Below are positions 86 through 29,697 of a DNA stretch of 34,525 nucleotides, piece by piece. The DNA is from Elusimicrobiota bacterium (GTDB lineage: Bacteria > Elusimicrobiota > UBA8919). How positions within the stretch are numbered: position 1 is the first letter of the stretch; each line of letters opens with the position of its first letter. The notes under the pieces are model-generated. The model made no database searches. It saw only the letters and a program-made list of their open reading frames with translations, and was not told the origin of the DNA. The translations under genes were made by a program, and so were the position numbers. Location of the stretch: positions 1 to 34,525 of the forward strand of contig DMMW01000010.1 in NCBI GenBank assembly GCA_003452965.1, written 5' to 3'.

Positions 86-207
86 TCTTGGTGTTGCATC
101 CGGCCCGCCACAGAACCGATGGCGAGGCCTATTATAATGCGAAAGTTAATATAGCAAACTATAATCTCTAAAATTCGGATTATTTTTATCTTGGTGTTGC
201 ATCCGGC
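86..207. repeat. 19-nt exact direct repeat (tcttggtgttgcatccggc) at 86-104 and 189-207; the second copy is the 3' end of the SDR gene
   Basis: Identical 19-mers read directly from the sequence. Copy 189-207 encodes the last codons (PDATPR) next to the stop at 186-188. Copy 86-104 lies 103 nt further downstream of the gene. Confidence 0.85.
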
Positions 208-1358
208 AGACCGCCGTCAACGGGAATGGTTGCGCCTGTGGTTGGTGTTTGCCGTGTTACAAAGAAGAGAACTGCATTTGCGACATGTCTTGCCGTAATT
301 TTTGCCTTAAGTAAATTACGACTTTGATAATATTCTTGTAATTTATTTTCATCAGTTATTCCTCTGTGCTTCATCCTGTCGGGACCTATTTTTTCCCATA
401 ATCCTGATTTAGTATTTCCATCTGAAAATACCGCATCAGGAGCCACCATGTTGACTCGTATATCAAATTCTGCTAATTCCAGACTTGCAATGCGTCCCAA
501 TTGATGTGCAGCTGCTTTTGTTGCACTGTATGCACCGAAACGCGCACCGGGAGCAAATACGTTTTTAGTAGATACTATTACGATATCTCCGCCGGTTCCC
601 TGCATACGCAAATGACGGCCGGCTTCTGATAGGGTAAGTAAAGTGCCCTCAACATTTACTTTCTCAAGTTTTTGGAAATCTTCCAGTTGCATTTCATCAA
701 GCGATGCAATTAACGGTATTCCGGCATTTGCAATTATAATATCAACACCGCCCCAAACTTTACTTACTTCATCGAATCCGTTAGCTACTGAATCCGTATT
801 TGTAATATCCATTCCAATACCGAAGATGTGGTTTTCGGCTATTTTTTTAAGCTCTTCAACTAATTTATCAAGCCTTTCGCCAGGTAAGTCGGTTGCGGCA
901 ACAAAGCAGCCTTTTTCCAGCAGGCCTCTGCAAATTCCCGAGCCAATCGCACCTGCAGCACCGGTAACTATTGCAACTTCGTTTTGAAGAGGGAATCTTG
1001 AATCAGGTTCATTATCAATATAAATAATACCGATGTCTTTCAAAAATACTATTTTTGGTTTTGTGTTGTTTTTATCAATAAAACTACTCATCGCGATAGT
1101 TATTTGTTTTTTGATATTTTCAATAGGGGCATTAACATCAATAGAATCTAATTGAAGCGGTGGAATTTTTACATTTTTCAAAGGAATAGGACATAAATTT
1201 AGATTATTATTATTTTTTGAATTAACAAATTCTACTACCGATATACTTGAGCAAAATTTTAATATAACACGATTGTAACGAACATCTTCATTGCCAGAAG
1301 GTTCGGCTAAAAGCCCACGAATAATCGGTAATATTTTATATACAGTATTATTTTCCAT
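186..1358 (-). CDS. Short-chain dehydrogenase/reductase with a ~125-aa N-terminal extension; resembles the dehydrogenase half of bifunctional rhamnulose-1-phosphate aldolase/dehydrogenase (YuxG/RhaEW type)
   Basis: 390-aa ORF. Contains TGAAGAIGSG (Rossmann TGxxxGxG), IIIANAGI (NAG) and catalytic YSATK (YxxxK). Sits immediately downstream of a class II aldolase gene on the same strand. Confidence 0.75.
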   Translation of the reverse strand: MENNTVYKILPIIRGLLAEPSGNEDVRYNRVILKFCSSISVVEFVNSKNNNNLNLCPIPLKNVKIPPLQLDSIDVNAPIENIKKQITIAMSSFIDKNNTKPKIVFLKDIGIIYIDNEPDSRFPLQNEVAIVTGAAGAIGSGICRGLLEKGCFVAATDLPGERLDKLVEELKKIAENHIFGIGMDITNTDSVANGFDEVSKVWGGVDIIIANAGIPLIASLDEMQLEDFQKLEKVNVEGTLLTLSEAGRHLRMQGTGGDIVIVSTKNVFAPGARFGAYSATKAAAHQLGRIASLELAEFDIRVNMVAPDAVFSDGNTKSGLWEKIGPDRMKHRGITDENKLQEYYQSRNLLKAKITARHVANAVLFFVTRQTPTTGATIPVDGGLPDATPR

Positions 1359-1432
1359 AATTGTGTTATAGGGTTACTTGGGTTACTAGAGTTATAGGGT
1401 TGAACTCTAAAAACTCTATAACTCAACAAACT

Positions 1433-2083
1433 CTATGAACTCTTGATGAGTTTTCGACGGTATACTTCTGCTTCTAAAGTATCCATTTGCATGTAGATTT
1501 TTTCACTGAAAAAATTCATTTTGCCTAAAATTTTTGATGCTACAACGGTTTTACAGGCACTTTCAACATACAGTGTTCTGTAATACGCTTCCTTCAAATT
1601 TGAGCCAACTGTTAAAAGTCCATGATTAGCCATTAAAATTGCATTATGGTTTTTTATTACTTCGCTTACTTTGTTTGCAATATTTTTACTACTCGGAACT
1701 GCAAATTTAATAGTAGGTACATTTGAACTGATTATACCTACAAAATCCGGTGTAAATGCTTTTAATGTTTTACCTTGCATTGCATATGCGATAGAATACG
1801 GTGGATGTGTGTGTATTACAGCGGAAATATCTTTTCTTGTATAATAACAGGCGAGATGCATTTGTATTTCGCAGGTCGGTTTTCTATTGTCGTTAATATT
1901 TTTCCCGGTTTTCAGGTTAACTGCGATATAATCAGATTCCTTAGTATCTTCAAAACATGCACCAGATACTTTCATATAAACGGTATTATCTACTCGTACA
2001 CTGGTATTACCGCCGGGTCCGACGACAAAACCTTTATCGGCTAATTCTTTTCCTATTCTAACCAGTTCTTTTTTTATATTCAT
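1433..2083 (-). CDS. Class II aldolase/adducin-family protein (fuculose/rhamnulose-phosphate aldolase-like)
   Basis: Contains GPGGNTSVR, the IHTHPP metal-binding His pair and ANHGLLTVG. The track start at 2089 is a TTG; the first ATG is at 2083. No clear SD, and the heptamer array abuts the start. Confidence 0.8.
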   Translation of the reverse strand: MNIKKELVRIGKELADKGFVVGPGGNTSVRVDNTVYMKVSGACFEDTKESDYIAVNLKTGKNINDNRKPTCEIQMHLACYYTRKDISAVIHTHPPYSIAYAMQGKTLKAFTPDFVGIISSNVPTIKFAVPSSKNIANKVSEVIKNHNAILMANHGLLTVGSNLKEAYYRTLYVESACKTVVASKILGKMNFFSEKIYMQMDTLEAEVYRRKLIKSS

Positions 2084-2090
2084 AATCAAA

Positions 2091-2244
2091 ATTCAGGATA
2101 CAGGATACAGGATACAGAATACAGAATACAGAATACAGGATACAGGATACAGAATACAGGATACAGGATACAGAATACAGAATACAAGATACAGGATACA
2201 GAATACAAGATACAGGATACAGGATACAGGATACAGGATACAGT
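2091..2244. repeat. Tandem heptanucleotide array, ATACAGR x21 plus one degenerate leading unit (ATTCAGG)
   Basis: Counted unit by unit: 12 ATACAGG, 6 ATACAGA, 2 ATACAAG and 1 ATACAGT from 2098 to 2244. Intergenic, between the LsrF-like stop (2288) and the aldolase start (2083). Confidence 0.95.
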
Positions 2245-2287
2245 GCTCAGTAAACAGATTAAGTGATCTCTTTACCCTTCTACCTTT

Positions 2288-3175
2288 CTACCTCTTTACC
2301 TTTGTCGCTAATGTTTTATATAATTCTAACGCTTCTTGTGGTTTCATGTTTTTATGCACAACATTATTTACTGCTTTTATCATTGCAATAGGATTTTCGC
2401 TTTGGAATATGTTTCTGCCCATATCCACACCCGACGCACCCTGCTGTACGGCACTATATGCCATTGTAAGTGCATCCAACACTGGCAGTTTTTTACCGCC
2501 TGCCATAACAATGGGAACAGGACATGATGCCGTTATAGTTTCAAAATCTTCTGGAACATAATATGTTTTTACTACATGTGCACCCAATTCTGCACATATA
2601 CGGCATGCAAGCCGAAAATATTTAGCATCCCTTACCATATCCTTGCCTACTGCGGTTACTGCTAAAACAGGTATTCCATAACGCATTCCCATATCAACCA
2701 ACTTGGTCATATTATGTATTGACCGTGTCTCAAATTCACCTCCGATAAATACCTGTATTGCCATAGCTGATACATTCATTCTGATAGCATCTTCAATATC
2801 AACAGCTATTTCTTCATTTGAAAGTTCTTTTAAGATGCTTGGTCCACCGCTTGTTCTCATAACTATAGGTGTTGTAAACGACGGAGGTATAGTAGTTCTC
2901 AAGATTCCGCGGGTCAACATAATTGCATCTGCATATTTTACAAGCGGAACAATATTTAAATCAATCCGTTCCAATCCGGTTGTAGGTCCCTGAAAATAGC
3001 CATGATCTATTGCCAGCATGACCGTGCGTCCAGTATCGCTGTTGAATATTCTTGACAGGCGGTTTTTCATACCCCAATCTAAAGAATTAGACCCTTTAAG
3101 AAAAAAACATTCCGATTTCATTGGAATATCTTCATAATATTTTTTTTCTTCTTTATTTGCGTCTGTTTCCGGCAT
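2288..3175 (-). CDS. DhnA/FbaB/LsrF-family class I aldolase (TIM barrel)
   Basis: [12 protein letters not shown] and a GAHVVKTYY-type Schiff-base lysine region. The track ORF is trimmed to ATG at 3175 (MPETDANK...), which is preceded by GGAGG on the minus strand. Confidence 0.75.
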
Positions 3176-3259
3176 AACTCCTCCCTGGAAATTTATTAAT
3201 TTTAATAACCTCATTATATATAAAAAATATTTTATTTTCAATAAAAATTTAAAAACCTC

Positions 3260-3287
3260 TTGCAAATTATCAATGTTTAGATACAAT
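3260..3287 (+). promoter_or_regulatory. Putative sigma70-type promoter for the cupin/esterase genes (TTGCAA-16-TACAAT)
   Basis: TTGCAA at 3260-3265 and TACAAT at 3282-3287, about 27 nt upstream of the cupin ATG, within an AT-rich divergent intergenic region. Confidence 0.4.
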
Positions 3288-3313
3288 AATAGAAAATAAT
3301 ATTGGGAGATTTT

Positions 3314-3628
3314 ATGCCTATAATCTCGGGAAAGAATGCTGTGCAAAATACCGGTGAGTTCCCGGCATGGGGATTGGTTCACTTCAAAGCAGGACAGAAA
3401 AACATAACAGAATTACATTATCACGATAGTGACGAATTTTTCTTTATGATTGAAGGAAGATGTGTGATGAAATCGGAAGGGAAAATATATACTCTTGAAA
3501 AAGGCGATGTTTTTGTTACTCGCATGGGTGACGAACACGAACTTTTTGAGATATTGGAAGATACGACACTTTTTTGGCTATGCACAGAACTTCGCGGTCA
3601 AAAAAGGCAAGGACACCAGCACAGGTAA
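3314..3628 (+). CDS. Cupin-domain protein
   Basis: Cupin motif 1 is [14 protein letters not shown] and motif 2 region is [15 protein letters not shown]. The ATG at 3314 is preceded by GGGAG. Confidence 0.7.
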
Positions 3629-3654
3629 AAATGGATAAAGATTGGAGGAATGAT

Positions 3655-4617
3655 ATGTCATTAATATTTGGGATGTCTTTGAGAAAACTAAAAGAATATA
3701 AGGGCAGAAATCCGCGTCCTAAAGATTTCGATAAGTTTTGGGAAAGAGGTCTTTCTGAAATGAATTCAATAGCTCCAAAAATAAAAATAGTTCCTGCAAA
3801 GTTTCAGGTACCTTTTTGCAAGTGTTTGCATCTGTACTTTACTGGTGTAGGCGGAGCGCGTGTTCACGCAAAAGTTTTGCGTCCCAAAAAACCGGCTAAA
3901 AAACATCCTGCAATATTGATGTTTCACGGATATTCCTGCAGCAGCGGAGATTGGTACAACAAGCTTGCCTACGCAGCTTTGGGCTATACCGTTGCTTATT
4001 TAGATTGCCGCGGACAGGGTGGTTTATCCGAAGATAAAGGTGGGGTTACCGGCTGGACACTACACGGGCATATTGTTCGCGGATTAAGCGATTCGCCGGA
4101 AAAACTGTTATTCAGGAATATATTTCTTGATGTGGCCCAGATTGCCAAAATAGTAATGGAAATGTCCGACGTGGATGAAAACCGCGTTGGCGCCATAGGC
4201 GGCAGCATGGGCGGGGCACTTTCGTTAGTTTGCGCCGCATTGGAGCCGAGAATCAGAAGAGTTGCGCCTAATTATCCGTTTCTTTGCGATTATAAAGGTG
4301 TATGTGAAATGGATGTGACTAAAACAGCTTATGCGGAATTTCACGATTATTTCAGGAAATTTGATCCGTTACATGAAAGGGAAGAAGAGTTTTTTAACAA
4401 ACTTGGCTATATAGATGTTCAGCATTTTTGCAGCAGGATAAAAGCGGAGGTATTGATGGGTACCGGCTTGATGGATACCGATTGTCCGCCGTTCAGTCAG
4501 TTTGCCGCATACAATAAAATTAAGTCAAAAAAAACATTAGAAATATATCCGGATTTTGCGCATGAGGATTTTCCATATCATAACGATAAAATCTTCCAGT
4601 TTATGAGCAATCTATGA
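3655..4617 (+). CDS. Acetyl-xylan esterase / cephalosporin-C deacetylase family (CE7) serine hydrolase
   Basis: All three CE7 signatures are present: RGQ (CRGQGG), a GxSxG nucleophile elbow (GGSMGG) and HE (FAHEDF). The N-terminus LKEYKGRNPRPKDFDKFW is typical. The ATG at 3655 follows GGAGG at 3644-3648. An alternative ATG lies at 3631. Confidence 0.8.
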   Translation: MSLIFGMSLRKLKEYKGRNPRPKDFDKFWERGLSEMNSIAPKIKIVPAKFQVPFCKCLHLYFTGVGGARVHAKVLRPKKPAKKHPAILMFHGYSCSSGDWYNKLAYAALGYTVAYLDCRGQGGLSEDKGGVTGWTLHGHIVRGLSDSPEKLLFRNIFLDVAQIAKIVMEMSDVDENRVGAIGGSMGGALSLVCAALEPRIRRVAPNYPFLCDYKGVCEMDVTKTAYAEFHDYFRKFDPLHEREEEFFNKLGYIDVQHFCSRIKAEVLMGTGLMDTDCPPFSQFAAYNKIKSKKTLEIYPDFAHEDFPYHNDKIFQFMSNL

Positions 4618-6390: not shown

Positions 6391-6630
6391 ATGAAGATTT
6401 TGTATCGTGATGTTAAAAAATATTGTGTGTTGACGAATAGAGAAGTGGAAGTCTTGCAGAAACTTATTCATAATACATTACCCAACGGGAATGAAGAAAT
6501 AATTCCTGTTCAGAAAATAAAATGTCCATATGCTATCAAGTGTTTCTATGAAGCGAGAGATTGCATTTACACTGAAAGCAATATCAATTCTAAAAATGAT
6601 CCCTTAATATTCAAAAATGAAGAGAAGTAA
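6391..6630 (+). CDS. Small hypothetical protein (79 aa, 4 Cys)
   Basis: Only ORF-level evidence. It overlaps the next gene by 14 nt. The short LTNREVEVLQKL stretch is reminiscent of LuxR-type HTH but too short to call. Confidence 0.3.
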   Translation: MKILYRDVKKYCVLTNREVEVLQKLIHNTLPNGNEEIIPVQKIKCPYAIKCFYEARDCIYTESNINSKNDPLIFKNEEK

Positions 6631-7714
6631 ATTGGAACTTAAATATAAACCGGATTTTGATTATGCAAAAGAAATGTGGAATCATTATTGGGCAAAAGAA
6701 GTATTGAAACGTCCGCTTGTGGTTGCCAATGTAGTTAAACAAGAAGGAAAAACTGTTGATAAAGATAAGTATAAGTATTATAATGCATGTACGAAGAATT
6801 ATAGAGAACAACTGACGATAATTGATGAATGGTTGGATAATACGTTATTTCTTGCTGAATCAATTCCGTGTTTTTCTCCAAGTCACGGTCCTGACCAGTT
6901 TGCTGCAATGCTCGGTGCTGATTTAAAATTTTCAGAAAGTAGCAAAACTACGAATTGGGTAGAACCTATAGTAGAAAATTGGGAAGAATTTATCCCGAAG
7001 ATTAAATTAAATGAAAATAATTCCGTCTGGCAAAGTCTTCTGGAATATTCAAAGATTCTTAAAGAACATTCAAAGGGGAAATATCTCGTTGGGATTTGCG
7101 ATTTTTATTCAAATGCCGATATGTTAAGTGCGATTCGGTCTCCGGCTAAATTGTGTATGGATTTTTATGATTATCCCGAATCAATAGCAAAGGCAATGTT
7201 ATCAGTCAGAAAATTATATAAAACGGTATATAATTCTTTATATGAAGCAGGCGGAATGAACAACGAAACCGGTACTATAGGGTGGATTCCTTTTTGGTGT
7301 AAAGATAAATATGCAACGATTCAATGTGATTTTATATGTATGGTATCACCGAAAATTGCAAATGAATATATAATTCCGGCATTAGAGGAAGAGGCGAATT
7401 TTCTTGACCATTGCATCTATCATCTTGACGGTCCCGGAGCATTACCACATCTTGATAATATTCTTGCAATAAAAAAAATTGATGCAATTCAGTGGATACC
7501 CGGTGATGGGCAGCCGCCGCAGTATGAATGGATTGATGTTCTGAAAAAATGCCAGAAAGCTGGTAAGGGACTTCAGATTTTGGATGTCACAAGCATAGAT
7601 ATTATAAAAAAATTCAGCAAAGAACTCAGTCCGGAAGGACTGGTATACTGCATAGACGTAAAGACTGAAAGAGAAGTTGATGAAATAACGACATGGCTTG
7701 AAAAAAACACTTGA
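6617..7714 (+). CDS. Hypothetical protein, possibly a uroporphyrinogen-decarboxylase (URO-D)-like TIM-barrel family member
   Basis: 365-aa ORF. The overall pattern (SHGPDQFAAMLGA..., CIYHLDGPGALPHLDNILAIKKIDAIQWIPG) recalls URO-D/MtaA-like proteins. The family call is from memory only. Confidence 0.4.
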   Translation: MKRSKLELKYKPDFDYAKEMWNHYWAKEVLKRPLVVANVVKQEGKTVDKDKYKYYNACTKNYREQLTIIDEWLDNTLFLAESIPCFSPSHGPDQFAAMLGADLKFSESSKTTNWVEPIVENWEEFIPKIKLNENNSVWQSLLEYSKILKEHSKGKYLVGICDFYSNADMLSAIRSPAKLCMDFYDYPESIAKAMLSVRKLYKTVYNSLYEAGGMNNETGTIGWIPFWCKDKYATIQCDFICMVSPKIANEYIIPALEEEANFLDHCIYHLDGPGALPHLDNILAIKKIDAIQWIPGDGQPPQYEWIDVLKKCQKAGKGLQILDVTSIDIIKKFSKELSPEGLVYCIDVKTEREVDEITTWLEKNT

Positions 7715-7926
7715 AGCTCCATCCCGATAACAATCGGGATTATAACATTTACCATAAGATTTTAAGGAGCGGAATCCGGCCCGTCAAGGCTTCGGCCTTG
7801 GCTGGCTGCAGGATGAAGCTCCATCCCGATAACAATCGGGATTATAACATTTACCATAAGATTTTAAGGAGCGGAATCCGGCCCGTCAAGGCTTCGGCCT
7901 TGGCTGGCTGCAGGATGAAGCTCCAT
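7712..7926 (+). repeat. Perfect 102-bp tandem duplication (7712-7813, 7814-7915) plus an 11-nt third start; each unit carries two hairpins
   Basis: The two units are identical by direct reading. Hairpin A is atcccgat-aaca-atcgggat (7721-7740 and 7823-7842). Hairpin B is caaggc-ttcg-gccttg (7785-7800 and 7887-7902), a C(UUCG)G tetraloop on the + strand. The array begins at the stop codon of the upstream gene. Confidence 0.95.
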
Positions 7927-22477: not shown

Positions 22478-23338
22478 ATGATAGACGAAAAAGATGTTTA
22501 TGAGGCTAAGAAGAAAGTGCAGTCTGCAATGAAGGATGCGACTGTAAGGATGGCGGTGATTGTTGGGGCGATTCTGTTGGGCATTCTGTTCTTTAGACCA
22601 TGGATCCAGATTGGTCCTGGCGAAAGAGGTGTTGTCTTAAATTTTGGTGCTGTTCAGAAAAACGTGCTTGGAGAAGGATTGCATTTTAGGATACCTATAG
22701 TGCAGACGATTGCCATAATGGATGTAAAGGTGCAGAAGGCAGAGACAGGTGCTGCATCCGCCTCGTCCGATCTTCAGGATGTGACATCATCGGTTGCGCT
22801 TAACTATCATATAGTCCCGGATAAGGCAAATGTTGTCTATCAAACCATCGGGGTATACTTTAAGGAGCGTATTATAGACCCTGCAATACAAGAGGTAATG
22901 AAAGCTGTGTCAGCCAAGTATACAGCAGAAGAACTTATAACAAAGAGGGCAGCAGTAAGCGAGGCTATAAGAGAAACACTTGCTGAAAGACTTTTAGCAT
23001 ATAATATAGCAGTTGATGCATTTTCCATTATCTCATTCAGTTTCTCTAAGGTATTTACAGAAGCCATTGAGTCAAAACAGACAGCAGAACAGCTTGCACT
23101 AAAAGCAAAGAGAGACCTGGATAGGATAAAGATAGAGGCGGAGCAGACAATTACGGCAGCAAAAGCAGAGGCGGAGTCCCTGAGGCTGCAAAGAGCGAAT
23201 ATTTCTACGGACCTTATAGAATTGAGAAAAATAGAGGCAAACCTTAAGGCAATAGATAAGTGGAATGGAATCCTTCCGCAGGTTACAGGTAGCGGAGCAA
23301 TACCATTTATTGGAGTAGGGGATATACAGAAAAAATAA
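22478..23338 (+). CDS. SPFH/Band-7 (prohibitin-like) membrane protein
   Basis: An N-terminal TM followed by IGPGERGVVLNFG, a PHB core and a C-terminal coiled coil (AEQLALKAKRDL...). GGAGG lies before the ATG at 22478. Confidence 0.85.
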   Translation: MIDEKDVYEAKKKVQSAMKDATVRMAVIVGAILLGILFFRPWIQIGPGERGVVLNFGAVQKNVLGEGLHFRIPIVQTIAIMDVKVQKAETGAASASSDLQDVTSSVALNYHIVPDKANVVYQTIGVYFKERIIDPAIQEVMKAVSAKYTAEELITKRAAVSEAIRETLAERLLAYNIAVDAFSIISFSFSKVFTEAIESKQTAEQLALKAKRDLDRIKIEAEQTITAAKAEAESLRLQRANISTDLIELRKIEANLKAIDKWNGILPQVTGSGAIPFIGVGDIQKK

Positions 23339-27960: not shown

Positions 27961-29436
27961 ATGAAAAAGTATAAAATATTCGTGAGTGGTGTGCAGAAAG
28001 AACTCAAAGCAGAACGCCGGGCAGTGAAAGATTCGATTCTCGGTGATGTCTTGCTCTCCGAGTATTTTGACGTTTTCTTGTTTGAAGATTCACCGGCTAA
28101 AAGCCATTCAGCAGAAAAGGCATATCTTGAAGAAGTCCGTAAAGGCAATATCTATATCAGCATTCTTGGCGATAAATACGGCAGCACGGGCAAGAATAAA
28201 ATTTCTCCTACCGAAGCAGAATTTCGGGAAGCAAAAACCAAGCATAAAGACATTTTAATTTATATAAAAGGTGAAAACTCCGTTGATAAAAACCGTGAAG
28301 CAGGCGTACAGAAACTTATTAAGGAGATTAAAGATTCCAAGGTGGGTTATTGTTATCGCAGATTTAATTCCATCAGCGAATTAACCAACCTTGTTTATGA
28401 AAGTTTGATTGTCTTTTTAAAAGAGAAAGGAGAAGTCGGCAGAGCCGTATTTGACCAGCGGATATGCGACAGTGCGACTTTCTCCGATATTGACGATGAA
28501 AAAGTTAAGTGGTTTTTAAAAACAGCACGAGCCAAACGGAATTTTCCACTTGCTCTTGATTCTTCAACACAAGATGTTTTTACTCATCTAAAACTTTTGA
28601 AAGACGGCAAATTGACCAACGCCGCAGTTTTATTATTCGGCAAAGAACCGAGAAAGTTTTTTGACCAGGCAAAAATCAAATGTATTCATCTGCCAAGTAC
28701 CGAAGTAGAGAAACCGTTCACATCATATCAAATTTACGAAGGGAATTTATTTGAGCAGGTGGACAAGGCAGTTAGTTTTGTATTTGATATACTCAAATTC
28801 CCTGTTATTCAGCAGGAACATACTGTCCAGGTATCTCGGCCCCGTGAAATTCCAGTATTCGTGGTTCAGGAAGCCATCGTCAACGCAGTTGCTCACCGCG
28901 ACTATAACACGACGTCCTCTGTTCAGGTAATGGTATTTCTTGACCGAGTGGAAATATGGAATTCTGGGACTTTACCAGCCCACTTAAAAATAGAAGACCT
29001 CAAAAAACCACACGCATCTCACCCGACAAATACTTTATTAGCCACAGTAATGTTTTTTGCCGATTACATTCAACAAGCAGGTTCGGGAACATTGGAGATG
29101 CTCAAACAGTGTAAGGCAAAGGGACTTCCCGAGCCGGACTTCGTATCAGTGCGGAATCTTGAATTCAAAACAATATTAGCCAGAGATATTTTTACGGAAG
29201 AGGTCTTAAATAAACTGGGATTGAATGAACGCCAGTTAAAAGCAGTAAAATATGTAAAAGAAAAAGGCAGAATAACGAATAAAGAATATCAGTTAAATTT
29301 TGGTGTTAAGAAAAGACAAGCAACAGATGATTTAAAAGATTTAGAAAATAAAGAGGTCTTAATTAAGATTGGATCTACTGGAAGGGGAACATATTACAAG
29401 GTTAATGGGGCGATAATGGGGCGAAAGGGGCAATAA
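27961..29436 (+). CDS. Fusion protein: N-terminal DUF4062-like domain + COG2865-type body (HATPase_c_4-like) + C-terminal wHTH
   Basis: The N-terminus KIFVSGVQKELKAERRAVKDSI...GNIYISILGDKYGS matches my recollection of the DUF4062 pattern. The middle and C-terminal parts (LTNAAVLLFGKEP, VQEAIVNAVAHRDY, VEIWNSGTLP, AGSGTLEMLKQCKAKGLPEPDF) are typical of RecG-like/COG2865 putative regulators. Confidence 0.75.
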   Translation: MKKYKIFVSGVQKELKAERRAVKDSILGDVLLSEYFDVFLFEDSPAKSHSAEKAYLEEVRKGNIYISILGDKYGSTGKNKISPTEAEFREAKTKHKDILIYIKGENSVDKNREAGVQKLIKEIKDSKVGYCYRRFNSISELTNLVYESLIVFLKEKGEVGRAVFDQRICDSATFSDIDDEKVKWFLKTARAKRNFPLALDSSTQDVFTHLKLLKDGKLTNAAVLLFGKEPRKFFDQAKIKCIHLPSTEVEKPFTSYQIYEGNLFEQVDKAVSFVFDILKFPVIQQEHTVQVSRPREIPVFVVQEAIVNAVAHRDYNTTSSVQVMVFLDRVEIWNSGTLPAHLKIEDLKKPHASHPTNTLLATVMFFADYIQQAGSGTLEMLKQCKAKGLPEPDFVSVRNLEFKTILARDIFTEEVLNKLGLNERQLKAVKYVKEKGRITNKEYQLNFGVKKRQATDDLKDLENKEVLIKIGSTGRGTYYKVNGAIMGRKGQ

Positions 29437-29452
29437 AGGGGCGATAATGGGG
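29407..29452 (+). repeat. Five phased GGGG runs (~11-nt period; GGGGCGATAAT-type units) overlapping the gene's stop; canonical G-quadruplex motif
   Basis: GGGG at 29407, 29418, 29427, 29438 and 29449, with loops of 5-7 nt. The unit ggggcgataat occurs exactly twice. Confidence 0.9.
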
Positions 29453-29697
29453 CAGAGCATTTAAAAAGACAGTATGTTTTTCCGATATAAAAACAGGAAA
29501 GCGCATTGGTCTCGATAAAGGCGGCCACTGGATTATCCTTCGTAGCAATAATAAAGTGGGAAAAGTTGTAGAGAAATAAAAAGAAAAATGTAAAGCGTCC
29601 ACATTTTCCTAATACACAATATGACACACAGATAAAGAACCTAAAATTAGGATTATCATTTCAAAACATAGGTCCCAAAATGACATTTATACAAGAG

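Follow-up and report, generated by a model that had tools for sequence, protein, structure and literature searches.

A tandem heptanucleotide array between two aldolase genes of an uncultivated groundwater Elusimicrobia bacterium, and its family in the same genome

In a 34,525-nt stretch of DNA from an Elusimicrobiota bacterium (contig DMMW01000010.1 of the assembly GCA_003452965.1; the whole stretch is hereafter called the window), most of the spacer between an LsrF-type aldolase gene and a class II aldolase gene is occupied by a tandem array of heptanucleotides, which read CTGTATY on the minus strand, the coding strand of both genes. We consider it probable (about 0.6) that this array is a slippage-generated heptanucleotide simple-sequence repeat, i.e., a variable-number tandem repeat or long simple sequence repeat (LSSR), which belongs to a family of such arrays and is transcribed as an unstructured and mainly passive intercistronic leader. 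The host is named by NCBI as Elusimicrobia bacterium RIFOXYC2_FULL_34_12 (metagenome-assembled genome, MAG, GCA_001800565.1), an uncultivated organism from groundwater.

Tandem Repeats Finder (TRF) delimited the array at 2094-2243, with a period of 7, 21.4 copies, 91% matches and no indels. The two-unit pattern ATACAGRATACAG, with up to one mismatch allowed, had 21 matches, all of them within 2091-2243, as compared with 0.06 expected from dinucleotide shuffles. The first-pass annotation of this DNA had described an ATACAGR array with a 7-nt period between the stop codon of the LsrF-like gene and the start of the class II aldolase, and this description was borne out by TRF, by unit parsing and by the Pfam and NCBIfam assignments of the flanking genes. 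In the ATACAGR register, positions 2091-2244 comprise 22 units, of which the first (ATTCAGG) and the last (ATACAGT) are degenerate, and the two ATACAAG variants recorded previously correspond to the two TTGTATT units of the gene strand. The TGTAT core is constant in all 21 units, the variation being confined to the two pyrimidines that join adjacent units. No pure run in the interrupted array exceeds 5 units, and all six frames are free of stop codons. The heptamers are contiguous and lack the unique spacers that split the repeats of a CRISPR, and no inverted partner of the array was found within 6 kb. The alternation of G and A between units (C and T on the gene strand) had also been regarded as patterned. 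Unit parsing did reveal two 3-unit blocks duplicated inside the array, but the identity at higher-order offsets (0.88-0.93) was no better than that at one unit (0.916), which indicates that the periodicity of the variants is weak.

The spacer from the LsrF-like stop to the aldolase ATG is 203 nt long and untranslated. On the gene strand its elements follow in the order TAG, octamers overlapping this stop, linker, 21 heptamers, CTGAATT, TTGATT and ATG (2083-2081). The last full heptamer unit ends 13 nt upstream of the ATG, and a TGA that overlaps this unit, at 2095-2093, is in frame with the aldolase and stops its reading frame. The purine-rich 8-mers mentioned in the first-pass annotation were found again as an array with a period of 8 and 3.9 copies (2273-2303), which reaches into the end of the LsrF-like gene, covering its last codons and its TAG (2290-2288). 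Arrays of this octamer, GGTAGAAA, are located at or directly after the stop codons of two unlinked loci, the lsrF-like gene and secD (contig L347, 15492-15513), and the octamer appears to be a second repeat family in the genome. An open reading frame (ORF) of 40 codons runs through the heptamers from a TTG at 2208 to 2086, its stop lying 2 nt before the aldolase ATG. We rejected it as a gene because it has no Shine-Dalgarno (SD) sequence, its TTG exists only through a variant unit, its product would be a YSVSCIL-like heptad repeat, and the gain of one unit shifts its frame.

CTGTATN/CAGGATN arrays make up a small genome-wide family, and the window array is one of its members. A second locus was reached through a Joint Genome Institute (JGI) metagenome search for a junction present in contig L002 (see below), followed by exact look-up of the Mem_trans protein. 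This locus belongs to the same MAG, the Mem_trans protein being A2474_00945 of RIFOXYC2_FULL_34_12 at NCBI; it was recovered in several assemblies and lies between the divergently oriented Mem_trans gene and a SurA_N-type chaperone gene. Together with the HD-SecD spacer, it brings the census to 6 arrays in 3 intergenic regions, within about 60 kb of the genome, whereas a uniform scan gave an expectation of 0.03. The five start-proximal arrays all show CTGTATN in the sense of the gene that follows, and 11-43 nt separate their ends from its ATG, and the single CAGGATN-type array adjoins the stop-codon side of its spacer. The proposal that the array is part of a genome-wide heptamer family resembling the short tandemly repeated repetitive (STRR) sequences of cyanobacteria therefore holds, the search for further arrays having yielded at least five more at two other intergenic regions.

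The length of the arrays was compared across assemblies. Contigs with exact matches to the aldolase and LsrF-like proteins came from many groundwater metagenome assemblies and from the MAG GCA_001800565.1, and the assemblies were at least 99.8% identical to each other around the locus. The spacer was byte-identical in 10 independent assemblies, which originated from different samples and several assemblers, and only the eleventh (ERZ909572) differed, carrying one extra interior CTGTATT unit (+7 nt); these counts rest on consensus assemblies. At the Mem_trans locus, in contigs whose Mem_trans protein is 100% identical, array A had 24, 24, 19, 11 or 11 units or was replaced by unrelated sequence, and array B had 10, 4, 4 and 10 units. 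The copy-number comparison called for in the first-pass annotation thus gave a divided answer, with near-constancy at the window array and broad variation at arrays A and B. In addition, one assembly carries a 77-nt duplication of the promoter region of the Mem_trans locus, and a second allele of the HD-SecD spacer is 21 nt shorter. The extra CTGTATT unit of ERZ909572 and the two duplicated 3-unit blocks indicate that slippage is ongoing.

The window array is real and correctly assembled, and it is extremely improbable that it came about through collapse or invention of a repeat in assembly. In this population, contigs do often break in arrays A and B (L351-L353), and the low-coverage assembly ERZ5996431 (about 3.5-3.6x) contains chimeric joins (L002, L146). 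However, the array is identical in the 10 assemblies despite their differing assemblers and samples, and all k-mers of at least 35 nt in 2040-2300 are unique, so that de Bruijn assembly of the interrupted array is unambiguous. Contig L002 (5932-5990) fuses the last 8 heptamer units to another upstream context. This join was set aside as probably a repeat-induced chimera, because a stretch of 55 nt is exactly the same in the window array and in array A, which accounts for it, and because the same assembly has a second odd join at the octamer array (L146, 2430-3511); a real inversion is the less probable explanation.

The comparison with related bacteria revealed the origin of the array. In the sister species Elusimicrobia bacterium RIFOXYD2_FULL_34_15 the aldolase is 87% identical with a conserved start, and the order of the lsrF-like, aldolase and short-chain dehydrogenase (SDR) genes is the same. 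The junction between its two aldolase genes measures 20 nt, TAATGAGTAACGAGTAATGGGTAATGG, and is made of four GTAATGR heptamers, the first of which supplies the stop codon and the last the start codon. In more distant homologues (60-66% identical) the aldolase is found in other operons, where its start abuts or overlaps the upstream gene. Since the junction is so short in the sister species and is abutting or overlapping in the distant homologues, the 150-nt array is a recent expansion in one species, which would have taken place within an ancestral lsrF-like/aldolase junction of about 20 nt. The sister species does carry CTGTATN arrays at the orthologous Mem_trans locus, but these are short (3-6 units) and degenerate. 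Each GTAATGR unit of the sister junction carries a TAATG stop/start overlap motif, and this heptamer recurs after the aldolase stop (L132, 4976-5003 and 5648-5680).

The RNA of the spacer is predicted to be unusually poor in structure. The minus-strand transcript of 2060-2310 had a minimum free energy (MFE) of -33.9 kcal/mol, as compared with -42.8 ± 4.0 kcal/mol for shuffled sequences (z=+2.23), and 200 of 200 shuffles folded better. The array RNA is composed of 49% U, 23% C, 15% G and 14% A, i.e., 72% pyrimidine. A hairpin between the octamers and the first heptamers is paired in the MFE structure, but it was rejected as being no better than in shuffles (z=0.11). The scan of 1300-3700 for terminators was negative, as was that of the spacer for minus-strand promoters, and no Rfam family matched anywhere in the window at the gathering threshold. 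A promoter-like sequence, TTGAAA-17-TATAAT, precedes the lsrF-like gene at 3241-3213 (11 of 12 matches).

On these grounds we propose the following course of events. The array would have arisen, and would be resized, through slipped-strand mispairing and the duplication of multi-unit blocks. It is most likely co-transcribed with the operon as a 150-nt U-rich, essentially unstructured leader. Such a leader would probably uncouple the translation of the two aldolase genes and probably serve as a single-stranded U-rich landing region for ribosomes, with binding of protein S1 or of cold-shock-type proteins replacing an SD. Changes in its length would then cause at most a graded tuning of expression and not on/off switching. 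The absence of an SD before the aldolase gene had been singled out as unusual, which was an overstatement, because a GGAGG-like SD is present in only about 6-9 of the 26 window genes.

Several points weigh against a mainly passive slippage product. In samples where arrays A and B differ greatly in length, the window array is near-invariant, and this near-fixity could mean that its length is constrained and hence that it has a specific function. A partner that binds a specific sequence would likewise be compatible with the strict TGTAT core and with the consistent orientation towards start codons. Moreover, slippage alone leaves unexplained how one heptamer came to be seeded at several unlinked loci.

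These points lead to the alternative that survives best, namely that (UGUAUYY)n, as RNA or as DNA, is a specific multimeric site bound by a dedicated or oligomeric protein, and that the arrays constitute a small post-transcriptional regulon in which translation is activated or repressed. This is the first of the explanations proposed in the first-pass annotation, and we regard it as possible but rather unlikely. It would account for the core that is invariant in 21/21 units, for the sense orientation of 5/5 start-proximal arrays at 11-43 nt before the ATG, for the predicted single-strandedness of the array and for its stable length beside variable sister arrays, and the same idea has been put forward for the TAACTGA repeats of Beggiatoaceae (PMC4679880). 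However, the invariance of the core is not statistically meaningful, because the variants trace to perhaps two mutation events that were spread by duplication. Other arrays of the family vary 2-fold in length or are absent beside identical flanking proteins, the sister species has no array at the aldolase gene, and array A is situated upstream of a predicted promoter and not in a leader. Finally, no candidate binding protein emerged from the analysis.

The array could also act as a negative polarity element, in which Rho loading and/or RNase E-type cleavage sites (GU|AUU in CTGTATT) depress aldolase and SDR expression in relation to that of the lsrF-like gene. Rho and RNase E generally require pyrimidine-rich, unstructured and untranslated RNA, and the spacer offers RNA with 72% pyrimidine and 15% G that is predicted to be unstructured over 150 nt, within 203 nt devoid of translation from stop to start. 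Nevertheless, we find this explanation improbable, since C makes up just 23% of the array RNA, a modest excess over G, and since similar arrays directly precede essential genes such as secD.

The suggestion that the array is a slipped-strand tract which alters spacer length was partly upheld, by the single +1 allele and by the sister arrays (24/19/11/0 and 10/4 units). It did not hold in its stronger form, that of a contingency (phase-variation) locus at which aldolase expression in a clonal population would be switched or graded through frequent changes in unit number. There is a precedent in the 7-bp repeats upstream of hmw1A and hmw2A of Haemophilus influenzae, where, as summarized in PMC2651432 after Dawid et al. 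(1999), 13-38 heptamers lie between the transcription start and the coding sequence and expression is modulated through the number of copies. The hmw arrays are pure and hypervariable and are found upstream of adhesin genes, whereas the window array is interrupted, nearly fixed and intercistronic in a metabolic operon. The +1 allele and the high polymorphism of the sister arrays notwithstanding, a contingency locus is very unlikely here: 10 of 11 assemblies are identical although the strains differ at arrays A and B, the longest pure run is 5 units, the array lies outside ORFs and not between a -35 and a -10 element, no minus-strand promoter hexamers span the tract, and the adjoining genes are metabolic, not surface or restriction genes. 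We therefore do not consider it a contingency switch, because it is nearly fixed and interrupted and lies untranslated between two cistrons of an operon for sugar metabolism.

It is hardly credible that the plus strand encodes an antisense sponge whose 14 CAGGATA units, as (CAGGAUA)n, imitate the CAGGAUG repeats with which CsrB sequesters CsrA. We take this sequence to resemble both the CsrB repeat and the CsrA consensus obtained by systematic evolution of ligands by exponential enrichment (SELEX), but the array differs from CsrB/Rsm RNAs in having no Rfam CsrB/Rsm match, no significant plus-strand promoter upstream, no terminator and no predicted structure; its units are contiguous and not displayed in hairpin loops, GGA is absent from 7 units of the window array and from all of array B, and the orientation rule tracks the sense strand of the genes.

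Among known repeats, the array is best placed with the LSSRs, which, according to Mrazek et al. (2007) as cited in PMC4679880, are built from 5-11 nt units, heptamers being the most abundant class, occur sporadically in a lineage-specific manner and have been proposed to originate from slippage. Head-to-tail copies far above chance and length polymorphism in steps of one unit are both found here, but LSSR is a descriptive class and not a functional family, so that membership says nothing about function. The TAACTGA heptamers (MacGregor 2015, PMC4679880) are described from marine Beggiatoaceae, some cyanobacteria and Bacteroidetes, where they stand in forward orientation just upstream of starts that often lack an SD; the same source mentions many sets per genome, up to 43 copies in some species and strain indels in 7-nt steps, and names S1, Csp or CsrA as suggested binders. 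The likeness consists in intergenic, sense-oriented tandem heptamers near an SD-less start (here at 13 nt). However, the unit of the window array is CTGTATY and not TAACTGA, its host is a member of the Elusimicrobia, the 21-unit array lies inside an operon, and the genome contains reverse-oriented partner arrays beside stop codons. TAACTGA-type sets number dozens to hundreds per genome, and 6 arrays were found here in the approximately 60 kb sampled. Heptamer repeats near start codons are also described in Nostoc (bioRxiv 10.1101/2022.06.06.494920), and the STRR heptamers of cyanobacteria are presented in PMC5088731 as dispersed, non-coding, variable tandem families that are used for strain fingerprinting. 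The resemblance to the latter lies in one heptamer forming arrays at several unlinked non-coding loci of a genome; both the unit (CTGTATY) and the host differ from STRRs in the strict sense, and no homology is implied. The units STRR1-3 of Mazel et al. 1990 are reportedly CCCCAGT, TTGGTCA and CAACAGT, from heterocystous cyanobacteria. A literature search for the exact repeat gave only an unrelated primer.

Repetitive extragenic palindromic (REP) sequences and bacterial interspersed mosaic elements (BIMEs) are likewise short, dispersed and found in operon spacers, and the spacers at 1359-1445 and HD-SecD do form hairpins, but the window array is not a palindrome (z=+2.23 for the spacer, z=0.11 for octamers with heptamers, no inverted copy in 6 kb). 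A REP-like element, CCGCCACTAA…TGGCGGACAAG, which accompanies CAGGATA units elsewhere in the genome, is absent from the window. A dispersed intergenic REP-like hairpin, CCGCCACT(A/G)A…(T)GGCGG, usually followed by ACAAG, occurs in this species and in the sister species (L347 776-796; L349 947-967 and 13904-13924; L350 4417-4437; L132 5704-5724 and 7182-7202; L357 5748-5768) and not in the window, and it is often flanked by CAGGATA or GCTATAC heptamers. Furthermore, the SecD-SecF and Mem_trans-SurA_N spacers are swapped for unrelated repeat-built sequence between co-occurring strains (L347 15475-15592 versus L350 5967-6091; L349 9610-10010 versus L347 9440-10010), the genes beside them being nearly identical (about 98.7% over the loci, 100% for the Mem_trans protein).

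Three tandem copies of ATACAGR were found in at least 119 stretches of species-representative genomes, which represent many bacterial phyla and two archaeal MAGs. Among the matches listed, 66 of 113 arrays are intergenic by crude ORF calling; in about 27 of these 66 a stop codon precedes the array at a distance of 0-12 nt, and the units are (CAGRANN)n in the sense of the gene that ends there; an inverted CTG-type array, (NNNNCTG)n, is present within 150 nt downstream in 16 of the 113 and upstream in none. CAG-type arrays after stops and CTG-type arrays before starts are also the rule in the Elusimicrobia genome, which this pattern echoes. The (CAGRANN)n and inverted (NNNNCTG)n arrays give rise to long repeat-built hairpins 3' of genes (L011-L129), and genomes with several loci among the matches listed include a Gammaproteobacteria MAG (CAVPOO01, 7 loci) and Calothrix NIES-3974 (4 loci). 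In viral contigs, which serve only as a proxy for a genome-wide control, ATACAGR x3 had 58 matches, and three control heptamers of matched composition and without stops had 90, 38 and 13. We therefore rejected a special cross-phylum ATACAGR family, as its wide occurrence is what any heptamer shows.

A more speculative reading, which we hold to be doubtful, would treat the CTGTATN arrays before starts and the CAGGATN arrays after stops as the two arms of a cis-acting RNA system of Elusimicrobia, perhaps of wider distribution, in which a protein that binds single-stranded RNA, or the ribosome itself, reads the pyrimidine arm and heritable copy number tunes the translation of cistrons. If true, such a two-arm system would be a graded "rheostat" for operon stoichiometry acting at the level of the population, and not neutral slippage debris.

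Table 1. Location of the arrays and flanking genes. Numerical positions refer to the window; the last four rows describe the other two loci of the same genome.
Feature	Position	Strand	Description or basis
Core heptamer array	2094..2243	-	21 head-to-tail units: CTGTATC x14, CTGTATT x5, TTGTATT x2
Degenerate 22nd unit CTGAATT	2087..2093	-	Sequence
Non-repetitive linker (…ATCACTTAATCTGTTTACTGAGCA) from octamer array to heptamer array	2244..2272, 24-29 nt	-	Sequence
Purine-rich octamer array, GGTAGAAA-like, period 8, 3.9 copies	2273..2303	-	TRF
Upstream LsrF-type (DeoC/LacD family) aldolase/thiolase, 295 aa	2288..3175	-	Pfam; NCBIfam NF006081, 507.7 bits; GGAGG SD
Downstream class II aldolase, 216 aa, ATG 2083-2081, no SD	1433..2083	-	Pfam Aldolase_II; homologues
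Third operon gene, SDR	186..1358	-	Pfam; NCBIfam NF006194, positions 433-703 of 703
Aldolase-SDR spacer, two mutually inverted 9-mer arrays	1359..1432	-	TRF; inverted repeat I1
Mini-array, 4 units: CTGTATT CTGTTTA CTGTTTA CTGTGTA	Mem_trans locus	Sense to Mem_trans	Ends 11 nt before ATG
Array A, (CTGTATY)n	Mem_trans-SurA_N spacer		Followed by promoter-like TTGACT-16-TAAAAT
Array B, (CTGTATA/CTGTATT)n	Mem_trans-SurA_N spacer		Ends 8 nt before GGAGG SD and ATG
Stop-(CAGGATA)2-GC hairpin-(CAGGATR)4.6-loop-(CTGTATA CGGTGTA CTGTATT)-SD-ATG	HD-SecD spacer		

The genes around the array were assigned as listed in Table 1, the cut-off of NF006081, the LsrF thiolase model, being 297 bits. The SDR aligns to the C-terminal half of bifunctional aldolase/SDR models, and in this operon the aldolase and the SDR (186-2083) are separate genes that between them match both halves of these NCBIfam models; judged from these alignments, the pair represents an enzyme that is usually fused and is split here. 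The spacer between them, together with the end of the aldolase gene (1359-1445), is predicted to fold into a hairpin (z=-3.96; 0 of 200 shuffles folded as well), and on the minus strand this hairpin ends about 6 nt upstream of the SDR start codon. Elsewhere in the window, 102 bp are perfectly duplicated in tandem (2.1 copies, 100% identity) at 7712-7926, between the ORF 6617-7714 and an Ldh/Mdh gene; among assemblies of this population, one copy is present in the contigs L001, L003, L006, L007 and L010 and two in the window, L004 and L009. Tandem arrays with a GGGGCGA core were detected at 29403-29453 (TAATGGGGCGA x4.8, across the end of the ORF 27961-29436) and at 22561-22590 (TGTTGGGGCGATTC x2.3).

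Heptanucleotide arrays of the LSSR or STRR-like kind are known, and the window array is a further case in Elusimicrobia, a phylum in which, to our knowledge, they have not been described before. If the arrays are neutral, the practical lesson would be that they cause breaks and mis-joins in short-read assemblies (L002, L146, L351-L353). Tandem heptamers are the commonest long simple repeats of prokaryotes. To what is known of them the present case adds a clear rule of orientation relative to start and stop codons and a natural population, that of the Rifle groundwater, where the array between the two aldolase genes is nearly fixed and other members of its family show high polymorphism.

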